Source: Escherichia coli
GTDB taxonomy: Bacteria; Pseudomonadota; Gammaproteobacteria; Enterobacterales; Enterobacteriaceae
Direction: 5' to 3' (one strand)
Assembly: GCF_044324875.1 (NCBI RefSeq)
Contig: NZ_CP172185.1
Length of the DNA: 64,000 bases
In this document: positions 1,455 through 54,373 of the stretch, piece by piece
How the letters are laid out: each line of letters starts with the position of its first letter
Numbering within the stretch: the first letter of the stretch is position 1
Position numbers and translations under genes: made by a program
The notes under the pieces: model-generated
Told to the model about the DNA's origin: nothing
Databases searched by the model: none
What the model saw: the letters and a program-made list of their open reading frames with translations, nothing else

Positions 1455-1929
1455 TCATCGTATATAACTGAATGCGGTGATGACGTGTTTCACCCCCGCC
1501 ACGCGACTGGCGATATCAGCAGCAGCCTGTCCTTCCTTCTCTGTAACTCTCCCCATAAGAAAGACTTCACCATTCTCCGTCAGTACCTTTACATCTGACA
1601 GTTTCACCCTGCTGCTCTTCAGTAACTGTGCCCGGATTTTTGTGGTCAGCCACGCATCAGTAGCTGTTTTATCAGCCCGAAGTGGTTTTCCCGTCCTTAT
1701 TTCATTCCATACCTGCACAGTCCCCTCAACACCATCTGCAATCTGACGGGCTTTTTCACCTGCACTACGGTCTGGTGCCTGCCCTGTCAGCAGTACAGTG
1801 CCCTGGTATGCTGTGACGATGATTCGCGCATCCCCCCTGAGTTGTGAGTCCTTCGACAGCGCACGGCTGACCCTTGCTTCCAGAATTTCATCATCAATCT
1901 GCGTTCCCGCACTTCGGGGGTCCACTGAC
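1455..1929 (-). pseudogene. BON-domain (OsmY/YraP-like) protein, 5-prime end replaced by IS21-family terminus
   Basis: ORF 1455..2015 has two BON-like segments; its first ~29 codons are encoded by the IS terminal repeats (1930-2015), so the native N-terminus and signal peptide are missing. Confidence 0.5.
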
Positions 1930-2050
1930 TGCAAAATGGCATCTGAATCGATCGCAGTTTGGCATTCGAATCGATCATGATTTGGCATCCATCTCCGATC
2001 ACAGTTTGGCATCACAATCGATCACGATTTGGCATGCTTCCGATCATTGA
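1930..2050 (+). repeat. IS21-family left-end multiple terminal repeats
   Basis: Five tandem copies of a ~20-bp unit (TTTGGCAT..CGATCG..GAT variants) between 1930 and 2050; typical IstA binding sites of IS21-family ends. Confidence 0.6.
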
Positions 2051-2131
2051 TTGGCATCCTGCCAGTCACTCCGGGAATTAACTCTTTTCACCACAGTCTC
2101 CATTGCCGTGTTTAAACCAGTGGAGACGTCA

Positions 2132-3697
2132 ATGTCCAGAAAGAGAAAATCCAGGAGCACTATGGAAACCTGTTTTAAGATCCTTCAGCTCAAGTTCGAC
2201 AAGAAGCTGACTAACCGTTGTATCGGACTGACGTTACACATCAGCGCCTCAACCGTTTTTGAGGTTCTTGCCCGCTTCAAAGCCTCTTCTCTGTCATGGC
2301 CATTACCTGCTGATATATCCCATGACACGCTGGAGAAACTCATTTTTCCGCCCAAAGACACCTTTGCATCAGAGCTTGTAATGCCTGACATGTTGTACTT
2401 CGATACGGAAATGAGAAAACCAGGTGTGACGCGGCAACTGTTGTGGATGGAATACAAGGCACAGGCGGGTAACAAAGCGATGGGATACTCGCACTTCTGC
2501 CGTTGCTACCGGGAGTGGAAAAAAACGCGACGTCTCTCCATGCGCCAGGAGCATCGTGCCGGCGAAAAGCTTTTTATCGACTTCTGTGGTCCTACGGTTC
2601 CTGTTATTAATCCGGACACCGGTGAGATACGCCGCGTGGCAATCTTCGTGGCCGTAATGGGGGCGTCCAACTATACCTACGTTGAAGCGTGCGAAGGTCA
2701 GGACATGATGTCATGGTTAAATGCCCACAGCCGTTGCCTGACCTTCCTGGGCGGCGTACCGAAGCTGCTCATCCCCGATAACCTCAGAAGCGCAGTGAAA
2801 AAGGCCGATCGATATGAGCCTGTCATCAACGACAGTTATCAGGCACTGGCTGAGCACTATGGCACGGTTATCATCCCGGCCCGACCACGCAAACCTAAAG
2901 ATAAACCAAAAGCAGAAAACGGCGTCCTCATCGTTGAACGATGGCTTCTTGCCCGCATCCGTAATGAAACCTTCCACACGCTCAGGGCGCTGAATGCGCG
3001 CCTTAGGGAGTTACTGACAGACATGAATAACCGGCCAATGAAGGGGTACGGCAATCAAACCCGTGCAGAACGCTTCCGCATACTGGATGCGCCAGCACTC
3101 TCTCCGCTGCCTCTGGCACCTTATGAATACACGGAATACAAAGCTGTGAAGGTTGGCCCTGACTACCACGTTGAATATGCCCGTCACTGGTACTCCGTTC
3201 CACACGAACTGGTCGGTCAGCGTCTGTCACTGAAGGCGGGGCAGTCGGTGGTACAGCTCTGGCACAAGGGGCAGTGTGTGGCGCAACATCCGCGCAGCAC
3301 ACATGAATATAAACACACAACCAATCCGCTTCACATGCCAGAGCGCCACCGGCAGCACGGGACATGGACACCGGAACGCCTGATCGAGCAGGGAAAACGT
3401 ACGGGCCCGTCCACAGGCCGGGTGGTTGAATCCATGCTGAAGGCAAAACCCCATCCGGAACTGGCTTATCGTGCAGTTCTGGGGCTGCTGGCACTTCAGA
3501 AAAAATACGGCCCGGAACGGCTGGAAAAGGCCTGTTACGTTGCCCTGCACTATAACGCCCCTGACAGACGCTTTATCGACAATCTGCTGCGTCACCATCG
3601 GGAGAACCTGGAGCTTCCATTATCCCGCCAGGGCGAACAACATCCGGCATATGCTTCAGAGCATGAAAACCTGCGTGGTCCGGGCTACTACCACTGA
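2132..3697 (+). CDS. istA: IS21-family transposase IstA
   Basis: ORF track 2051..3697; long ORF begins inside the terminal repeats, so the GGAGACG-preceded ATG at 2132 is the more likely start; N-terminal HTH then DDE-type catalytic region; followed by istB. Confidence 0.85.
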   Translation: MSRKRKSRSTMETCFKILQLKFDKKLTNRCIGLTLHISASTVFEVLARFKASSLSWPLPADISHDTLEKLIFPPKDTFASELVMPDMLYFDTEMRKPGVTRQLLWMEYKAQAGNKAMGYSHFCRCYREWKKTRRLSMRQEHRAGEKLFIDFCGPTVPVINPDTGEIRRVAIFVAVMGASNYTYVEACEGQDMMSWLNAHSRCLTFLGGVPKLLIPDNLRSAVKKADRYEPVINDSYQALAEHYGTVIIPARPRKPKDKPKAENGVLIVERWLLARIRNETFHTLRALNARLRELLTDMNNRPMKGYGNQTRAERFRILDAPALSPLPLAPYEYTEYKAVKVGPDYHVEYARHWYSVPHELVGQRLSLKAGQSVVQLWHKGQCVAQHPRSTHEYKHTTNPLHMPERHRQHGTWTPERLIEQGKRTGPSTGRVVESMLKAKPHPELAYRAVLGLLALQKKYGPERLEKACYVALHYNAPDRRFIDNLLRHHRENLELPLSRQGEQHPAYASEHENLRGPGYYH

Positions 3698-3713
3698 CAG
3701 AAGGAACAACAGT

Positions 3714-4469
3714 ATGAGTGATAACCTGTTAAACAAACTGACCCAACTGAAACTCCCGGCGATGGCCGGGAGCCTGATACGGCAGCGGGAAACGCCTCAG
3801 ACCTACGACGAACTGTCGTTCGAGGAAAGGCTGACGCTGCTGGTTGATGACGAGCTTCTGAGCAGGGAAAACAGCCGTGTGGCACGGTTGAGAAAAAATG
3901 CCGGCCTGAAATACCAGGCAACACCGGAAGGGCTGCGCTATCCGGCCTCAAGAGGTCTGCGGGCTGAACAGATGAGAGAACTGCTGAACGGCCACTACAT
4001 AACCCACAGGAAAAACCTGCTGATAACCGGTCCGACAGGATGTGGCAAGAGCTGGATAGCCAATGCGCTGGGCGAACAGGCATGTCGACAGAAACACAGC
4101 GTCCGGTACTGTAGAACCGGGCGATTACTGGAACAACTGGCTCAGGGACGTGTTGATGGCAGCTGGCTGAAATATCTGAAACAGTTGCAAAAAATACAGG
4201 TTCTAATCCTGGACGATCTGGGGCTGGAACAGTTAAGTAACGCCCAGTGTAATGACCTTCTGGAGCTCATAGAGGATCGTTACGGACAAAGCAGCACGAT
4301 AGTGGTAAGCCAGTTCCCGGTAGATAAATGGCATGGTCTGATGGAGAACCCAACAACAGCAGATGCCATCCTGGACAGACTGGTACATAACTCACACCGA
4401 GTGGTCCTTCAGGGAGAGTCACTGAGGAAAAATCCCCCGGTAGTGGAAAGCAGCGAAAAAACGCGTTAA
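3714..4469 (+). CDS. istB: IS21-family helper ATPase IstB
   Basis: Walker A GPTGCGKS, Walker B LILDDLG; start at ATG 3714 (MSDNLLNKL) with SD AAGGAA, not the longer in-frame track ORF 3471..4469. Confidence 0.9.
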   Translation: MSDNLLNKLTQLKLPAMAGSLIRQRETPQTYDELSFEERLTLLVDDELLSRENSRVARLRKNAGLKYQATPEGLRYPASRGLRAEQMRELLNGHYITHRKNLLITGPTGCGKSWIANALGEQACRQKHSVRYCRTGRLLEQLAQGRVDGSWLKYLKQLQKIQVLILDDLGLEQLSNAQCNDLLELIEDRYGQSSTIVVSQFPVDKWHGLMENPTTADAILDRLVHNSHRVVLQGESLRKNPPVVESSEKTR

Positions 4470-4759
4470 AAAGCGGTAGAAAAAGTTAAGTTCCCGGTTG
4501 ATCGAATGGATGCGAATCGCTGATCGGACTTCGATGCCAATCCGTGATCGAATAGAGCGGAATACGCAGGGAACCACACAGGGTATGGACAAACATAATA
4601 ACAATAACAGGATGAAAATATTGAATAAAAAATAAAAACCGAGACATCATCATTTGCAGTAATAGCCACCTCCTTACCGAAAAGTGTGAGTTGCCGGACA
4701 TTTTTTAAACGCATGATAAGGTCTGATGATACAGTCACCCTGCAACCAGGAGGTACATC

Positions 4760-5011
4760 ATGCGTATACGTGTTTTTGGTTACCGGCACTGCCCTTCAGT
4801 CCATCGCATCATGCATCACGCAACGCGAATCCCCGATGAAATGGAACCGGATGTTGTGTTTATTGATGTCGCGAAGCACAGTGTGACGCTGCGGGATATG
4901 GCTGACCGTGCAGGCTGCCCGGTGGATAACTTCCCGTGTGTGTTTGTTGATGATGTGTATCTGGAGCCCCTTCCACCAGAGCCGGGCAAACCGCACTTTA
5001 CATACTGCTGA
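4760..5011 (+). CDS. small thioredoxin/glutaredoxin-fold-like protein (83 aa)
   Basis: Strong SD AGGAGG 7 nt upstream; pattern MRIRVFGY-HCPS ... FPCVFVDDVYL resembles the glutaredoxin/NrdH layout but with the CxxC replaced by HCPS; function uncertain. Confidence 0.35.
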   Translation: MRIRVFGYRHCPSVHRIMHHATRIPDEMEPDVVFIDVAKHSVTLRDMADRAGCPVDNFPCVFVDDVYLEPLPPEPGKPHFTYC

Positions 5012-5178
5012 ATATTTATTACCGGATATGGACAATCGCTTTCATTCGGGATAAAAAATACTGCGCGTTCCTGGTTTATTTTGCGTTGCTGTCATGACGT
5101 GTTTGCCTTCATTGCCGGGATCGCGCACTTTTTGTTATAACTCCCCGGAGGACACTGTCTGTAATCAGATGGAAACCT

Positions 5179-5613
5179 TTATCTCAGTGATGTCCTGGTT
5201 AATACAGAATACTGCCCCGGACCAAGTAACATAATGGCAATCCCCCCCATGAAATACAGCATTTCATTTTCAAGCCCCCACGCCCCTACTTCAGTCAGTG
5301 TGAAAAACTTCCCTGTTCCGACCAGAAGCGTGGCAACAATCAGTGTCAGCGCATAAATCAGAGCAGCAGGTCTGGTAAATATCCCAAGAATGATAAGTAC
5401 CGGAGCCACGATTTCACCAATATACACACCATAGGCAATAAATCCTGGCAAACCAGCATCCTGCAACATTGATATAATCCAGTTGACACCGTGCTCTATT
5501 TTGGCCACACCATGGAACAGCATCAATATACCAAATGTCAGTCTCAGCAACAGAAGACCTGTATCCGGGTAGTCTGTCAGTCTGGTAAAGAACATATTTA
5601 TTCTTGCTGGCAT
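5179..5613 (-). CDS. DoxX-family inner membrane protein
   Basis: 144-aa protein with four hydrophobic helices and DoxX-like motifs (LLLRLTFGILMLFHG, GGIAIMLLGPG). Confidence 0.7.
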   Translation of the reverse strand: MPARINMFFTRLTDYPDTGLLLLRLTFGILMLFHGVAKIEHGVNWIISMLQDAGLPGFIAYGVYIGEIVAPVLIILGIFTRPAALIYALTLIVATLLVGTGKFFTLTEVGAWGLENEMLYFMGGIAIMLLGPGQYSVLTRTSLR

Positions 5614-6198
5614 AAAAAACCTCGTTAAACGATAACAGATAATGAAGAAACTATTATCGTTGAGTCGACACCATCAATTGACCAGATATTTCTGACATTC
5701 ATAATCAAAAAATTTGACAAAACTGTAAACGTTCGCTTTTTATACCAACACAGAATCCACTCAGTCACACAACCTGTATGCGTCATTTCCTGCTGTTATT
5801 TAAAAAATTTCTCACGTAACAGACATTTCAAAAAAACACTAAAAAATACCAGAACAATTAAGATAATATTACGATCAAATAAGTAAAAGTCTTTTGTCTG
5901 TTATTTTTATTTTCTGTGATTACTGTCATTCTTTCACCACTTTAATTAACATCGCATAATAATCCGGGAGGTGGATAAGATATGAAAATTAACTATCCTT
6001 TACTGGCGCTGGCGTTGAATTATTACCTGTAGAGCTCACTCCGGATGAGCAGAAAGAACCGATGGTGGCTCTTACTCCACTTTTATCCACTCCTTCACAC
6101 AGCACTGTCAGTGCAGGTGCCTGAAAGATCTCGTTCCGTCACGGTAAAATGACGCTGGAAAATTCTTCACCAGAACTGCTCACTGTGTTAATTCGTGA

Positions 6199-6372
6199 AC
6201 TGACCTGGGGGGAATGCGTGGTACCCTGCTGTACGGACTAATCGGAACCTGTCGGTTGAACGGTATCGATCCGGAAGCGTATCTGCGCCATATCCTGAAC
6301 GTTCTACCGGAATGGCCTTCCTGCATGGTTGATGAACTCCTGCCATGGAATATGGTGCTCCCATTGGGGTAA
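6199..6372 (+). pseudogene. IS66-family transposase (TnpC) C-terminal remnant
   Basis: Frame reads ...[50 protein letters not shown], matching the conserved C-terminus of the intact TnpC at 8167..9618; GTAAGCG-type end just downstream. Confidence 0.6.
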
Positions 6373-6491
6373 GCGTCAATACGGCGTTCGCTTAACTTAA
6401 CACTTACTTTCAAAGCCTGATATCTGTCCTACGCTTTTCCTCAATACCACATCGCCAGCAGGAAACAACCTAATGCCTGTGTTGGGGTCTG

Positions 6492-6516
6492 AATTACTAA
6501 TGATAATCATTTGCAT
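6492..6516 (+). promoter_or_regulatory. Fur box-like operator upstream of sitA
   Basis: AATTACTAATGATAATCATTTGCATT contains the AATGATAATCATT core of the Fur consensus. Confidence 0.55.
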
Positions 6517-6536
6517 TGTGTATAGCTTATGCTATA

Positions 6537-6558
6537 AAACATAGCCGTTGCTATGTTT
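6537..6558 (+). promoter_or_regulatory. MntR box upstream of sitA
   Basis: Palindrome AAACATAGC-CGTT-GCTATGTTT matches the MntR operator consensus; an adjacent second palindrome TATAGC-TTAT-GCTATA lies at 6521-6536. Confidence 0.6.
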
Positions 6559-6590
6559 GTTCTAATTTTACTCACTATAGGTACTGAATT

Positions 6591-7505
6591 ATGCACTCAA
6601 TAAAAAAAGTAACCATGCTCCTGGGGTGCCTCGCCCTCACCTGCTCGATAGCATTTCAGGCGAGTGCAACTGAAAAATTCAAGGTCATTACAACATTTAC
6701 CATCATCGCAGATATGGCCAAAAACGTGGCTGGAGATGCTGCAGAAGTCTCATCCATAACCAGGCCCGGTGCAGAAATTCATGAGTATCAGCCTACCCCT
6801 GGCGATATTAAACGTGCGCAGGGGGCACAACTGATTCTCGCCAACGGTATGAATCTGGAATTGTGGTTCCAGCGCTTTTACCAGCATCTCAGTGGTGTTC
6901 CAGAAGTGATTGTCTCTTCGGGTGTGACGCCAGTAGGGATCACCGAAGGCCCCTACGAGGGAAAACCTAACCCTCATGCCTGGATGTCGCCAGATAATGC
7001 TTTGATTTACGTCGATAATATTCGTGATGCGTTGATAAAATACGATCCGGCAAATGCAAAAACATACCAACGTAATGCCGATACTTATAAAGCCAAGATT
7101 ACCCAAACCCTTGCCCCCCTGCGTAAGCAGATTGCTGAACTCCCTGAGAATAAAAGATGGATGGTCACCAGTGAAGGGGCTTTTTCTTATCTCGCACGCG
7201 ATTTGGGGCTAAAAGAGCTTTATCTGTGGCCGATAAATGCCGATCAACAAGGAACACCCCAGCAGGTACGTAAAGTGGTTGATATAGTGAAGAAAAATAA
7301 TATCCCAGCGGTATTTAGTGAGAGTACGGTTTCCGATAAACCAGCGCGTCAGGTTGCGCGTGAAACCGGCGCACACTACGGCGGTGTGCTCTATGTCGAT
7401 TCCCTGAGCACAGAAAACGGCCCGGTACCTACGTATATCGACCTTCTGAAGGTTACTACCAGTACGCTGGTGCAGGGAATTAAAGCCGGGAAAAGGGAGA
7501 AGTAA
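6591..7505 (+). CDS. sitA: Mn/Fe ABC transporter periplasmic substrate-binding protein SitA
   Basis: 304 aa with signal peptide; cluster-9 metal-binding SBP fold; followed by a sitB start overlapping the stop (TAATG); Fur and MntR boxes upstream. Confidence 0.85.
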   Translation: MHSIKKVTMLLGCLALTCSIAFQASATEKFKVITTFTIIADMAKNVAGDAAEVSSITRPGAEIHEYQPTPGDIKRAQGAQLILANGMNLELWFQRFYQHLSGVPEVIVSSGVTPVGITEGPYEGKPNPHAWMSPDNALIYVDNIRDALIKYDPANAKTYQRNADTYKAKITQTLAPLRKQIAELPENKRWMVTSEGAFSYLARDLGLKELYLWPINADQQGTPQQVRKVVDIVKKNNIPAVFSESTVSDKPARQVARETGAHYGGVLYVDSLSTENGPVPTYIDLLKVTTSTLVQGIKAGKREK

Positions 7506-7640
7506 TGATGCAATCTGCGGGTATTGTCGTTAATGGCGTTACTGTCACCTAGCGAAACGGGCAGAAAGCACTGCGCGATGCATCCTTCACAGTACCAGGC
7601 GGATCTATTGCCGCTCTGCTTGGGGTAAACGGTTCCGGTG
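7505..7640 (+). pseudogene. sitB: sitB 5-prime fragment (ABC ATPase) with premature stop
   Basis: MMQSAGIVVNGVTVT then TAG, then ...ALRDASFTVPGGSIAALLGVNGSG; homology ends inside the Walker A motif at about 7640; sitCD absent. Confidence 0.65.
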
Positions 7641-7986
7641 AAATCGTCTTGACACGTTTCTGGGCTCGTCATCAGCGGTTGTTGCGAATGATCGCCGCCC
7701 TGCGATGGTTGATTTATTTTATTGCGCCCCGGCGTCTGCCTTGCCAGGTACCGGAGGCGGGCTCTGAAGGACTGAGTAGGGTGAGCGCGTCAGGCCGCGA
7801 AGTACTGACACGGGAGTTTGTGGCAGGCAGTGAAGTCCTGACCAGGGTAAGGGAGGCGCTGACGTGCAGGTCCTGACTGTCAGCCAGGCGCATGGTGACT
7901 GACTTTCTCAATAACCCGCTGTCAGGCGCTCAACGCCCGACAGCAGGCCATGGCCCGGTGTGCAAAGACCTGACGGCAGGTGTTGT

Positions 7987-8127
7987 GTCACCCGGAGAAG
8001 GTAAATCCCTCAAGAGGCAGCAGCTCAGCCAGTCGGTCCTCAGGCCACTCCGGCAGGCGCGTCAGTACGTCCGTCAGCCAGGCATGTGGCTCCAGACCAT
8101 TACGCTTTGCTGTTTCCAGAAGACTCA
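7987..8127 (-). pseudogene. second IS66-family TnpC C-terminal fragment
   Basis: Minus frame MSLLETAKRNGLEPHAWLTDVLTRLPEWPEDRLAELLPLEGFTFSG* parallels the TnpC C-terminus; abuts the end of the complete IS66 element. Confidence 0.5.
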
Positions 8128-8166
8128 TTGTAAGCGTACAGCGAGGGCCGTATTGACGGGGATGTG

Positions 8167-9728
8167 TTATTCAGCTGGCAGTGCTATGCGCCACGGAAGC
8201 AGTTCGCTGACCCGGTTGACCGGCCAGTCTGCTATGACGCCAAGCACATGGCGAAGGTAGCTTTCTGGATCCACGTCATTCAGTTTGCACGTCCCTATCA
8301 GGCTGTACAGTAGCGCTCCCCGCTCACCACCATGGCCAGAGCCGAAGAACAGGAAGTTTTTACGACCCAGACTTACCGCCCGCAGGGCATTTTCAGCGAT
8401 GTTGTTGTCGATTTCCACCCAGCCATCGTTCGCATAGTACGTCAGTGCCGGCCACTGGTTAAGTGCGTACGCGAACGCCTTCGCCAACTCTGAGTGTCGC
8501 GACAGGGTCTTCATCTTTTCACGCAACCAGCTTTCCAGGGATTTCAACAGCGGTTTCGTTTTTCGCTGACGTTCAGCAAGCCGCTGCTCTGCCGGCATTC
8601 CCCTTATATCCGCCTCTATGGCGTACAACTGACCGATCTGCTCCAGGGCTTCTTCCGTCAGTGCTGACGGGATGCGGACGTGCACATCGTGGATCTTTCG
8701 GCGGGCATGAGCCCAGCAGGCAGCTTCCGTTATCCCACCATTGCGATACAGCTCGTTGAACCCGGCGTACGCATCCGCTTGCAGCACACCGCTGAAGCAA
8801 GCAAGATGAGTCTGCGGATGGATGCCTTTTCTGTCCGGGCTGTAAGCGAACCACACTGCAGGTGCCAACGCTGACCCGGCATTGCGGTCATCACGAACAT
8901 ACACCCACAGCCGGCCCGTCCGGGTTTTACCGCTCCCCGGCTCCAGCACTTTCACCGGGGTATCGTCCGTGTGCTGTTTGCTGCTCTCCATCACGTAGCG
9001 GTTCAGCGCATCGTGCAGGGGACTGAGTCGTTCTGCGGTCATCGCCACCCACCGGACCAGCGTGTTTCGGCTCAGTTCCACACCCTGGCGGCTGAAGATG
9101 ACGGACTGACGATGCAGCGGGGTATGGTCACAGTATTTACTCACCAGGATGCGGGCCAGCAGGCCCGCACCGGCCACACTGCGGGTCAGAGGTTTCGGGA
9201 GGAGTGGGGCCTGGACTATCACATCGCAGCGGCTGCAGGCCAGCTTCGGGCGCACCGTTTCGATGACCTTAAAGGCGCTGCGGATTATCTCCAGTTGCTC
9301 TGAGACGGTTTCACTCATCACCTTCAGGTCGCCGCCGCATTTCGGGCAGACAGTCACTGTCGGGGTGATGCGCCGGGTTTCACGTGGCAGGTCTGCCGGC
9401 AGTTTCTGACGACGGGAGCGGCGTGCAGGCCGGTCCTGTGGGGCGACCGCCACCGGGGGCTCTGCCTGCTCAACCGTACTGACAGTGGGCTCATCGTCCT
9501 GCAGACAGCGTTTTGCCGCTGCAAGACGGTTTTCCAGCTCAGCCAGCCGCTTCTCTGCCTGGCGGATTTTATTTTCCAGTTTATTGCGGCTTTTCTCTGA
9601 ACTCTGCCCGAACAGCATCCGCCGCAGCTTATCAACTTATCAAGCTGTGCCTTCAGCCGTTCGATTTCCTGTTCGTAGTCGGCAACCTGTCCGGCGTACT
9701 GGCGCAGCCGGGCCTGCTGCTTTTTCAT
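8167..9728 (-). pseudogene. tnpC: IS66 transposase TnpC, frameshifted
   Basis: N-terminal coiled-coil part (track ORF 9354..9728) and catalytic part (8167..9618) are in different frames; tandem 8-bp duplication CTTATCAA at 9628-9643 explains the shift. Confidence 0.75.
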
Positions 9729-9837
9729 GGTAACATTTAGCTGTTACACAGCAACCTGCTGCTGACGCAACAGGGCTTTCAGCTGGTCGATATTATCAGG
9801 AAGCGGGATATTTTTCATCCTGCCCAGGTAAAGGGAT

Positions 9838-10185
9838 TCAGATCCGCAGACTATTACTTTTCGACCTTCCCGGTTGCATCCAGACTATACCCTCCAGCAG
9901 CATGGCAAGCTGTGCCGGGGTCAGATACACCTTTCCCTCCCGGGCGACCGGCCAGATGAACGTTCCCCGTTCAAGTCTTTTCATATAGATGCAGAGCCCT
10001 CCGCTGTCTGCCCACAGGAGTTTTACCAGCCTGCCCCTGCGTCCCCGGAAGATGAAGAGATGGCCGGAGATCGGGTCATCCTTCAGGGTGTTCTGGACCT
10101 TTGCGGCCAGACCGTTGAAGCCGTTTCTCATGTCGGTGATGCCGGCCACGAGCCAGATACGGCTGCCAGCCGGAAGCGTAATCAT
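9838..10185 (-). CDS. tnpB: IS66 Orf2 (TnpB)
   Basis: 115 aa, near-identical to the second IS66 TnpB at 52659..53006. Confidence 0.85.
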   Translation of the reverse strand: MITLPAGSRIWLVAGITDMRNGFNGLAAKVQNTLKDDPISGHLFIFRGRRGRLVKLLWADSGGLCIYMKRLERGTFIWPVAREGKVYLTPAQLAMLLEGIVWMQPGRSKSNSLRI

Positions 10186-29020: not shown

Positions 29021-29791
29021 TTAATAAGGCCTGATACTGACATGATTTTTGTCGTATTTACGTCCGTGAGCGGCTATTGCCCACACCGTTCGCGCCAGCT
29101 TGTTTGCCATTGCGACGATTGCCACGCTGGCCGGACGACGTTTTTTCAGTTCGGTTATCCACGGCCCAGGTTCTTTGGTCAGTAATGCTGCCGCCCTTGC
29201 ACCATGAATAAACAGGGTTCGCAGATATTTATCACCACGTTTGCTTATTCCCAGCAGGCGGATTTTTCCTCCTGAGCCTGTCTGTCTGGGCACCAGACCA
29301 ACATAAGCCGCGAACTCTCGCCCTGATTTAAACACTGATGCTTTCCCCATGATGGCCAACGCTGCCGTTGCAATAAGTGGCCCAACGCCAGGAATATCCA
29401 GCAACCGTCTACAGGTTTCATTCTGTCTCGCCACACTGGTAAGCTGTTTTTCTATATCATCTATCAGTGAGTCCAGTTCATTCAGCCTGTAGTACTGATT
29501 TTCCAGCACTGTAATGAGATACAGTGGCAGTCTCTCTTTCATCCGCTCCAGTGCTTCAGGGAACTCCCGTTCCATCGCTGCCCGACCTTTGTGGATGGTT
29601 TCACCAAACTCCAGTAACGTCCCGTGCAGGGCATTAATTTGCGCGGTCCGGAACTTCACCAGTTGTCTGCGGGAACGGTGCAGAACCAGTATTGACTGTT
29701 GTTCTTCTGTTTTGACGGCGATTTCTTTGCCTGGCTGCTGTACCGCCATCCAGATAGCTCGCGCATCCATCACGTCATTCTTATTGCCCAT
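29021..29791 (-). pseudogene. IS110-family transposase, N-terminally truncated by IS629
   Basis: 256-aa ORF matches the C-terminal two-thirds of IS110/IS1111-type transposases; N-terminal domain missing, IS629 end at 29817. Confidence 0.65.
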
Positions 29792-29857
29792 GACGAATGC
29801 TTTAACGAAGCGAGCTGAACCGCCCCGGGTTTCCTGGAGAGTGTTTTATCTGTGAAC

Positions 29858-32237
<2,380 letters not shown>

Positions 32238-32242
32238 GCAAA

Positions 32243-32707
32243 CACATCAATGATGAACGCCACATAGACGACCCCCTCCCATGTGCTGACGTAAGTAAAA
32301 TCAGCCACCCACAACTGGTCAGGACGTTCTGCCACAAACTGACGGTTTACGCGGTCGCCTGCGGCAACGGCTTTCCGGCTGACGGTAGTGCGGACCTTTT
32401 TACCCCGGAGAACACCGGCAAGTCCCATAACCGCCATGAGGCGCGCCACTGTACATCTGGCTACCCTGATTCCTTCCCGTAACAACTGACGCCAGACTTT
32501 ACGCACACCGTATACCTGATGATTCCCATCGTATACGCGCAGTATCTCTTTCTTCAGCCAGTCATCGCGCTGCGCACGGGCACTGCGTTTATAAGGATGA
32601 TGTCGCTGTTGCTGACAGTGGTAATACGTTGACGGGGCAATATGTAGTTCACTGCATACCGGTCCGACCCCGTACAGCTTACGCAGCTTATCCAGCAGTG
32701 GCATCAC
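32243..32707 (-). pseudogene. IS629 orfB, N-terminal part
   Basis: Identical to OrfB residues 1-154 of copy 2, then runs into the IS100 end. Confidence 0.8.
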
Positions 32708-33030
32708 TTTTTCCAGAGGCGGTCGAACTCCGCCTTCGCAAAATAAGCGGAAGCCTGGCGAAGGATATCGTTACTGCGGCGCAGTTCACGATTTTCACGT
32801 TCCAGCTCTTTCAGACGCTGACGTTCAGCGGTGGTGAGCCCGCCATCACCGCCTCCGGTATCCCGCTCATGCTGGCGTACCCAGACACGCAGAGTCTCCG
32901 GTGTACAGCCAATCTTTGGGGCAATGGAACAAATTGCCGCCCACTGTGAGTCATATTCGCCCTGACTTTCCAGAACCATACGAATCGCCCTCTGACGGAC
33001 TTCGGGGGAAAAACGAGTATTTTTAGTCAT
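32704..33030 (-). CDS. IS629 OrfA
   Basis: 108 aa, identical to copy 2 OrfA (38056..38382). Confidence 0.85.
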
Positions 33031-33083
33031 TCTGTTTACCTCTTTCTCAGGGAGTTTAGTCTCCAGGATTCCCGGGGCGGTTC

Positions 33084-33448
33084 ACGGGAGCCAGGACCTT
33101 AAAATAACTACTTACAGGCTGTTGTATTCCAGCTGGTAATACGATTTCTGCACTGTCAACAAACGGAATGCCGTCTTTAAAGTCTGCCCTGTCATTAGCC
33201 TCATTGAGAATGAAATCGACTAGAACAGGCTCTTCGTTCACCAGTCCTTGATGGTTAAGAAATTTGACGTAAAGTTTAAGTGTATTGCTGACGGGATAAA
33301 TTTTTCCAAGAGCATTGGTAACAACATGGGCTGCGGTGAGAATCTTTTGCTGCTGACCATTATCGAAACCAAACGCAGTTGCTTCGAGATGGCTACTAAA
33401 ATGAGGATCATTGCTTACATAGATTTTACAAACGTAGTTTTCAAACAT
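33084..33448 (-). pseudogene. S1 (trypsin-like) protease-like gene, 3-prime end cut by IS629
   Basis: N-terminal 120 aa with catalytic-His motif ILTAAHVV; reading frame continues into the IS629 inverted repeat. Confidence 0.4.
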
Positions 33449-53006: not shown

Positions 53007-53601
53007 CCCGTTGTAAAGTGAGGATATGGACACCTCACTTGCTCATGAGAACGCCCGCCTGCGGGCACTGTTGCAGACGCAACAGGACACCATCCGCCAG
53101 ATGGCTGAATACAACCGCCTGCTCTCACAGCGGGTGGCGGCTTATGCTTCCGAAATCAACCGGCTGAAGGCGCTGGTTGCGAAACTGCAACGTATGCAGT
53201 TCGGTAAAAGCTCAGAAAAACTTCGTGCAAAAACCGAACGGCAGATACAGGAAGCACAGGAGCGAATCAGCGCACTTCAGGAAGAAATGGCGGAAACGCT
53301 GGGTGAGCAATATGACCCGGTACTGCCATCCGCCCTGCGCCAGTCTTCAGCCCGTAAACCGTTACCGGCCTCACTTCCCCGTGAAACCCGGGTTATCCGG
53401 CCGGAAGAGGAATGCTGTCCTGCCTGTGGTGGTGAACTCAGTTCTCTGGGATGTGATGTGTCAGAGCAACTGGAGCTTATCAGCAGCGCCTTTAAGGTTA
53501 TCTGCGTATTCCGCTCTATTCGATCACGGATTGGCATCGAAGTCCGATCAGCGATTCGCATCCATTCGATCAACCGGGAACTTAACTTTTTCTACCGCTT
53601 T

Positions 53602-54357
53602 TTAACGCGTTTTTTCGCTGCTTTCCACTACCGGGGGATTTTTCCTCAGTGACTCTCCCTGAAGGACCACTCGGTGTGAGTTATGTACCAGTCTGTCCAG
53701 GATGGCATCTGCTGTTGTTGGGTTCTCCATCAGACCATGCCATTTATCTACCGGGAACTGGCTTACCACTATCGTGCTGCTTTGTCCGTAACGATCCTCT
53801 ATGAGCTCCAGAAGGTCATTACACTGGGCGTTACTTAACTGTTCCAGCCCCAGATCGTCCAGGATTAGAACCTGTATTTTTTGCAACTGTTTCAGATATT
53901 TCAGCCAGCTGCCATCAACACGTCCCTGAGCCAGTTGTTCCAGTAATCGCCCGGTTCTACAGTACCGGACGCTGTGTTTCTGTCGACATGCCTGTTCGCC
54001 CAGCGCATTGGCTATCCAGCTCTTGCCACATCCTGTCGGACCGGTTATCAGCAGGTTTTTCCTGTGGGTTATGTAGTGGCCGTTCAGCAGTTCTCTCATC
54101 TGTTCAGCCCGCAGACCTCTTGAGGCCGGATAGCGCAGCCCTTCCGGTGTTGCCTGGTATTTCAGGCCGGCATTTTTTCTCAACCGTGCCACACGGCTGT
54201 TTTCCCTGCTCAGAAGCTCGTCATCAACCAGCAGCGTCAGCCTTTCCTCGAACGACAGTTCGTCGTAGGTCTGAGGCGTTTCCCGCTGCCGTATCAGGCT
54301 CCCGGCCATCGCCGGGAGTTTCAGTTGGGTCAGTTTGTTTAACAGGTTATCACTCAT
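53602..54357 (-). CDS. istB: IS21-family IstB
   Basis: Identical to 3714..4469. Confidence 0.9.
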   Translation of the reverse strand: MSDNLLNKLTQLKLPAMAGSLIRQRETPQTYDELSFEERLTLLVDDELLSRENSRVARLRKNAGLKYQATPEGLRYPASRGLRAEQMRELLNGHYITHRKNLLITGPTGCGKSWIANALGEQACRQKHSVRYCRTGRLLEQLAQGRVDGSWLKYLKQLQKIQVLILDDLGLEQLSNAQCNDLLELIEDRYGQSSTIVVSQFPVDKWHGLMENPTTADAILDRLVHNSHRVVLQGESLRKNPPVVESSEKTR

Positions 54358-54373
54358 ACTGTTGTTCCTTCTG

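Follow-up and report, generated by a model that had tools for sequence, protein, structure and literature searches.

An 8-bp tandem duplication lies exactly where the reading frame of an IS66-family tnpC gene breaks, and it is very probably an inherited lesion that arose once in an orphan type of IS66 element, was the first point lesion to disable it and preceded its present state of a fixed, non-autonomous relic. The element lies in a stretch of 64,000 nucleotides from Escherichia coli, referred to here as the window, where it sits within the remnant of an IS3-family element, with iolB and the gene for a MarR-family regulator upstream. The duplication and the genes concerned are as follows.

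9628-9643, minus strand: perfect 8-bp tandem duplication, CTTATCAA twice on the plus strand and TTGATAAG twice on the coding strand, after tnpC codon 62
8167-9818, minus strand: tnpC pseudogene, product starting MKNIPLPDNIDQL..., 547 codons with both lesions repaired, assigned by translation, Pfam and homologue alignment
9744-9746, minus strand: TAA nonsense codon, codon 25 of tnpC, in frame and upstream of the duplication; GAA in single-copy alleles and in the fragment at locus 2
9838-10185, minus strand: tnpB, intact, 115 amino acids (TnpB_IS66, E = 3e-36; RefSeq WP_000631642.1)
10182-10592, minus strand: tnpA, intact, 136 amino acids (HTH_Tnp_1; RefSeq WP_000443280.1)

Read directly from the window sequence, CTTATCAA occurs twice in direct tandem, at 9628-9635 and 9636-9643, and the plus strand across the site runs CCGCAG CTTATCAA CTTATCAA GCTGTG. 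The borders of the unit are unambiguous and free of microhomology, because the G in front of the unit does not match its last base (A), nor does the G behind it match its first base (C). The duplication amounts to a +8 (effectively +2) frameshift after codon 62, and the break in the tnpC frame coincides precisely with the repeat, with an upstream ORF at 9728-9354 and a downstream ORF at 9618-8167. Translation from 9818 accordingly yields MKNIPLPDNIDQL...AV*QLNVTMKK...AQLDKL and then an out-of-frame tail. The preliminary description had placed a tandem duplication at this frame break and had stated that removal of one copy rejoins the downstream ORF. Both statements hold: the repeat is real, and with one 8-mer removed a frame of 1644 nt results, which is a multiple of three, remains open to the stop at 8167 and has the conserved junction restored. 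Within the 64-kb window, the CTTATCAA pair is the single perfect non-trivial 8-mer tandem repeat. Markov-1 simulations gave a mean of 0.98 such tandems per 64 kb, with at least one in 58% of the simulated windows, and the repeat alone is statistically unremarkable because about one is thus expected by chance. Its mere count fits a chance repeat, but this explanation was rejected, as single-copy alleles that are otherwise near-identical prove a real insertion.

The identity of the gene as an IS66 tnpC, also asserted at the outset, is borne out by the four IS66 TnpC Pfam domains of the repaired product, i.e. PF13007 LZ_Tnp_IS66 (54-145), PF13005 zf-IS66 (153-196), PF03050 DDE_Tnp_IS66 (211-496; E = 9e-105) and PF13817 DDE_Tnp_IS66_C (503-540), as well as by the presence of tnpA and tnpB upstream, which overlap by 4 nt. 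However, the ATG at 9728, implicitly taken as the start of tnpC in the preliminary description, is not the real start. Translation begins at 9818, because residues M1, P7, D8 and L13 encoded from there are invariant in the homologues. The alignment with full-length IS66-family homologues that had been proposed as a check comprised 17 such sequences, 52-73% identical, and the repaired junction matches their invariant residues: K61, L62, R64, M65, F67, G68, E72 and K73 are the same in 18/18 aligned sequences. Programmed frameshifting was dismissed, since a single frame codes for TnpC in the relatives and the TAA upstream stops translation in any case. RefSeq labels the gene as 'frameshifted' (PGAP annotation).

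A search of 5,426 complete E. coli genomes used a 96-nt query with the repeat at its centre and a 241-nt query. The segment is present in 29 of them, in each case as one contiguous match. Seventeen of the 29 carry two copies of the 8-mer (100% identity) and 12 carry one (88-nt match); the 241-nt query returned the same split. Of the metagenome contigs with the left junction (n = 5), four have two copies and one has a single copy. The single-copy allele resides at the same chromosomal locus (4 loci examined), and the order iolB, hypothetical gene, MarR-family regulator gene, IS3-family integrase fragment and IS66 element is common to both alleles, which are ~98-99% identical over the native part (19-21 SNPs in ~2.6 kb). 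The 17 two-copy genomes were obtained by different laboratories, in different countries and from different hosts; the 29 carriers of the element come from poultry, cattle and human sources. The frameshift, common to 17/29 complete genomes carrying the element, represents a stable lineage marker.

Best matches to this IS type in the plasmid search are 66-70% identical, with the ISSfl3 family at ~66%, and the best full-length relatives in a collection of 5.8 billion proteins are 69-73% identical. In the same collection, 100% matches are confined to ORFs truncated at the duplication, which start after it. Since no intact copy was found on plasmids or among the 5.8 billion proteins, the 5' two-thirds of tnpC represent an orphan type of the IS66 family of which only pseudogenes are known, namely at one E. 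coli locus and as a fragment at a second.

The ends of the element and the 3' part of tnpC have a composite structure, which comprises the following features.

10659-10678, minus strand: left terminal inverted repeat, which starts at 10678 with GTAAGCGACCCGTCAGAG (also read as GTAAGCGACCCG)
10679-10686, minus strand: GATTTTAC, the left copy of the original target-site duplication (8 bp), still in place
8897-8902, minus strand: crossover interval, with 8903 as the last orphan-specific base, 8896 as the first ISEc8-specific base and the 6 nt GTATGT common to both
8130-8896, minus strand: ISEc8-derived 3' third of tnpC and right inverted repeat, 763/767 identical to an ISEc8 copy (99.5%)
ending at 8130, minus strand: right terminal inverted repeat, ...GTACGCTTAC, of the ISEc8 type
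7988-8128, minus strand: C-terminal tnpC fragment of another IS66-family copy, abutting the ISEc8-type right end

Terminal inverted repeats starting with GTAAGCG, as in the IS66 family, are present at both ends. The two ends stem from different elements, because the right repeat is of the ISEc8 type. The native element measures 2534 bp and has GATTTTAC on both sides (lineage-B alleles L005, L013 and L017). In the window, the right copy of GATTTTAC is absent and the right flank reads AATGAGTC, so that the flanks do not form an 8-bp target-site duplication. This mismatch between GATTTTAC on the left and AATGAGTC on the right means that the window copy has been rearranged since insertion. Moreover, the present right junction differs from the site of the original insertion, because the tnpC fragment of another IS66-family copy (8128-7988) abuts it. 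From the tnpC start, the window equals the two-copy allele L002 for 922 nt and then diverges abruptly at 8896. The segment 8130-8896 is 99-100% identical (100-99.1%) to annotated ISEc8 in >2,600 records, i.e. at a nucleotide identity of at least 95%, and only 63.5% identical to the native 3' part. The hybrid junction is in register and in frame and is common to five genomes. ISEc8 has replaced the 3' third together with the right end of the element, thereby taking away the right copy of the target duplication. This orphan-type/ISEc8 hybrid is useful for the history of the sitA-adjacent island.

The crossover lies within six common bases of parents that are only 58-64% identical, yet it occurred at exactly homologous positions. 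Parental homology at this place is too low for ordinary RecA recombination. A second in-register IS66 hybrid is found in L004 (JML285), in which 4526-5452 corresponds to window 10158-9232: the 5' part of its tnpB shows 64-71% identity to the window, and from 9903 on the two sequences do not differ. The place of the switch (9904/9903) is also where ISEc62, an IS21-family element, has its 6-bp target duplication (9898-9903) in TUM9803 (L003).

How did the duplication come about? Most likely, a short palindrome was spontaneously miscopied or misrepaired. The ancestral palindrome CAGCTT-ATC-AAGCTG (CAGCTTATCAAGCTG) has a stem of 6-7 bp and a 3-nt loop (-5.6 to -5.9 kcal/mol, z ~ -2.3). Simple slippage is disfavoured by the microhomology-free borders and the lack of a repeat tract, in which the duplication is unlike the other indels in these alleles; a 2-nt microhomology (CA) one base away would yield another product, GCTTATCA twice. 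The two-copy and single-copy lineages differ by 16 SNPs in 8897-9746 versus five in the 1.75 kb upstream (9750-11500), which is a 6-7-fold higher density (P = 5e-5). As the duplication is located in this SNP-dense block, it may have come by gene conversion from another copy and not have formed in situ. The distribution of SNPs suggests that the 5' block of tnpC is a gene-conversion tract between IS copies carrying the duplication.

A different origin would be a transposition footprint. In this scenario, an element generating 8-bp target-site duplications (IS66-family, IS256, IS26 or ISL3-type) entered CTTATCAA and was exactly removed afterwards, or an aborted integration was followed by gap fill-in after the staggered cut, and both target copies were left behind. 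The IS66 family generally produces 8-bp target-site duplications, and 8 bp is also the length of the target duplication of the native element itself (GATTTTAC; L005, L013, L017). An 8-nt direct repeat has likewise been reported for the IS66-family element ISDge4 (PMC12898284). In addition, the unit is AT-rich (2/8 G+C) in G+C-rich surroundings, similar to the AT-rich target GATTTTAC, and lies in a hotspot of IS traffic, with ISEc62 at a distance of 260 bp in TUM9803, IS256-family elements at the 3' end (L002, L007-L010) and ISEc8 recombined in. The observed combination of a length equal to the target duplication of a transposase at the locus with borders devoid of microhomology is necessary for a footprint, but far from sufficient. 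The coincidence in length carries little weight because chance alone would give approximately one 8-mer tandem in 64 kb. Moreover, an occupied allele was not encountered: 29/29 genomes are contiguous across the site, 0 metagenome contigs have the 8-mer followed by A or G, and 5/5 left-junction contigs contain one or two copies. When bacteria lose an IS element, one of the target copies (precise excision) or some flanking DNA normally goes with it, and classical end-joining is absent from E. coli. To our knowledge, footprints keeping both target copies are of the eukaryotic type and have no established precedent for IS66. Our literature search for both-copy footprints retrieved nearly exclusively eukaryotic cases plus one archaeal casposon, and no bacterial precedent emerged. 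All this makes a footprint very unlikely. If it were true, it would provide the first evidence of footprints retaining both target copies in E. coli and of IS66 relatives inactivating one another, and it would bear on the poorly understood mechanism of IS66 transposition.

Besides its origin, the reading preferred here, i.e. an inherited duplication as the first disabling lesion, concerns the order in which lesions accumulated. At the main locus, TAA is present at codon 25 in every two-copy allele examined. A two-copy allele also occurs at a second site in three genomes (JML285, ZYB39 and UTME-7), whose copies at locus 1 have the length of single-copy alleles; in JML285, locus 1 combines the single copy with GAA. 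The second-locus segment (JML285, L004; metagenome contig L015) equals window 9903-9232 except for GAA at 9746, and adjoins a hemagglutinin-repeat pseudogene in both. Thus, the haplotypes seen are GAA with a single copy, GAA with the duplication and TAA with the duplication, while TAA with a single copy never appeared among the alleles compared. The duplication consequently preceded the TAA codon, because GAA occurs together with the duplication and TAA with a single copy is absent; the reverse order is ruled out by the GAA-containing two-copy fragment at the second locus. A later G-to-T change created TAA at codon 25 in the lineage of the window.

Nevertheless, the duplication might have been incidental, in that the element was already dead on its arrival and nothing was inactivated by it. 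The window copy does have further defects (the nonsense mutation in codon 25, a 3' end derived from ISEc8 and the loss of the target duplication), and all known alleles of the orphan type are pseudogenes, with no intact copy among 5.8 billion proteins. However, the haplotypes make the duplication older than TAA, and the ISEc8 replacement is restricted to a subset of the two-copy alleles, i.e. those of the five genomes; it postdates the duplication, because L002 possesses the same 5' part and the native 3' part. The single-copy lineage has lesions of its own, namely a GA-repeat expansion (+4) near 8989, a CAG-to-TAG stop and a -1 deletion near 8597, to which some single-copy alleles add a -1 deletion at 9202. 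In L002, which belongs to lineage A and has the native 3' part, the ORF is otherwise open until its truncation by IS256. No lesion common to lineages A and B was found, which argues that the element was probably intact at this locus when the two lineages split. With a probably intact ancestor and a duplication older than TAA, the duplication would be the first disabling lesion of its lineage, and an incidental duplication is highly improbable.

An assembly or sequencing artefact concealing a truly single-copy sequence, in favour of which nothing speaks beyond the general possibility raised in the preliminary description, can be excluded with near certainty, because the identical two-copy allele recurs in 17 complete genomes and four independent metagenome assemblies, is found at two loci and in the context of several distinct haplotypes, co-segregates with linked SNPs and involves an 8-mer that is neither a homopolymer nor another low-complexity tract prone to systematic error.

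What are the consequences of the inherited duplication for the element? The frameshift after codon 62 severs the leucine-zipper, zinc-finger and DDE domains from the conserved segment at the N-terminus, so that no full-length transposase is to be expected. Together, frameshift and TAA predict that full-length TnpC is not made, and TnpC function has thus probably been lost, as judged from the sequence. Downstream of the duplication, a 483-codon ORF starting with M65 (MLFGQSSEK...; 8167-9618, minus strand) remains open, with the zinc-finger and DDE domains retained. Public collections list the corresponding predicted protein (P0004, 19 contigs), and no obvious Shine-Dalgarno sequence precedes its start. 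This predicted ORF, being still open, may count against a total loss of TnpC function. The element had initially been regarded as probably non-autonomous on account of the duplication, and this assessment is corroborated by a broader set of defects: its non-autonomy rests on more than the duplication, because the TAA codon, the ISEc8-derived 3' third and right end and the lost target-site duplication contribute as well. The case is one of ordinary IS decay, already flagged in public annotation. Beyond annotation its significance appears small, as it concerns an IS66-family copy presumably unable to move on its own.

The element is surrounded by further IS elements, in the window as well as at the corresponding locus of other genomes. 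As the preliminary description had stated, an IS21-family insertion interrupts the other IS66-family copy of the window; the two parts of its tnpC occupy 53059-53514 and 56124-57239, and the inserted element (2655 bp) occupies 53489-56143. The flanks of this second IS66 copy (~52.0-57.3 kb; ends read by eye) differ, GATTTTCA versus GTCTAAAA, and because of this mismatch the copy adds no target information. An IS21-interrupted element at 29.8-33.1 kb was considered as the other IS66 copy and rejected, as it belongs to the IS3 family. Two inverted, 100% identical copies of the 2655-bp IS21-family element (1928-4582 and 53489-56143) bracket 48.9 kb, which could be a composite-transposon-like or invertible segment. 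The IS3-family element (29808-33084) is split by a 1954-bp IS21-family element (30284-32237); an intact inverted copy of it is present 5-8 kb away (38002-39319), and a fragment of an IS110-family transposase is located at 29021-29791. On the other side of the tnpC pseudogene, sitA (6591-7505) is intact, and the neighbouring sitB remnant is truncated (region 6208-8149). The two are flanked by C-terminal fragments of IS66-family transposases (6208-6363, plus strand; 8015-8149, minus strand), and the pair has the appearance of a stranded piece of the sitABCD operon, which encodes an iron/manganese transporter. In L002 and L007-L010 (locus ~5560-6810), which are two-copy alleles with the native 3' part, the last ~19 codons of tnpC are cut off by an IS256-family element that is itself frameshifted and is followed by a partial IS66 tnpC and then an IS3 fragment. 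Owing to this succession, the locus can be viewed as a graveyard of nested insertion sequences.

Taken together, the element can be compared with several known systems. It has the same tnpA-tnpB-tnpC layout as other IS66 elements of Enterobacteriaceae (ISSfl3-like and unnamed elements of Enterobacter, Klebsiella and Salmonella), the same leucine-zipper, zf-IS66, DDE_Tnp_IS66 and C-terminal domains in TnpC, the same GTAAGCG... ends and, in the native allele, an 8-bp target duplication. However, the protein encoded by the orphan 5' two-thirds is only 69-73% identical to the nearest full-length relatives and ~66% identical to ISSfl3. Annotated ISEc8 copies match the window at 99.5% identity in 8896-8130, whereas upstream of 8903 identity drops to 58%, and at the site of the duplication ISEc8 has one, different 8-mer, CTGGATAAAC. 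The footprints of the eukaryotic hAT/Ac-Ds elements, which generate 8-bp target-site duplications, likewise consist of a tandem duplicate of target-duplication length at an otherwise unoccupied site. In contrast to the lesion described here, they depend on end-joining and are usually imperfect, and such footprints are not established for IS66 or other IS elements of E. coli. A further parallel is provided by frameshifted IS transposase pseudogenes, in which a small indel breaks the frame, is fixed by vertical inheritance, is joined by accumulating lesions and ends up with the PGAP label 'frameshifted'. The present case differs from these in that the frame is broken by a clean, microhomology-free 8-bp duplication and not by a homopolymer or simple-repeat change, whereas indels of the simple-repeat kind are exactly what the sister single-copy lineage has acquired.
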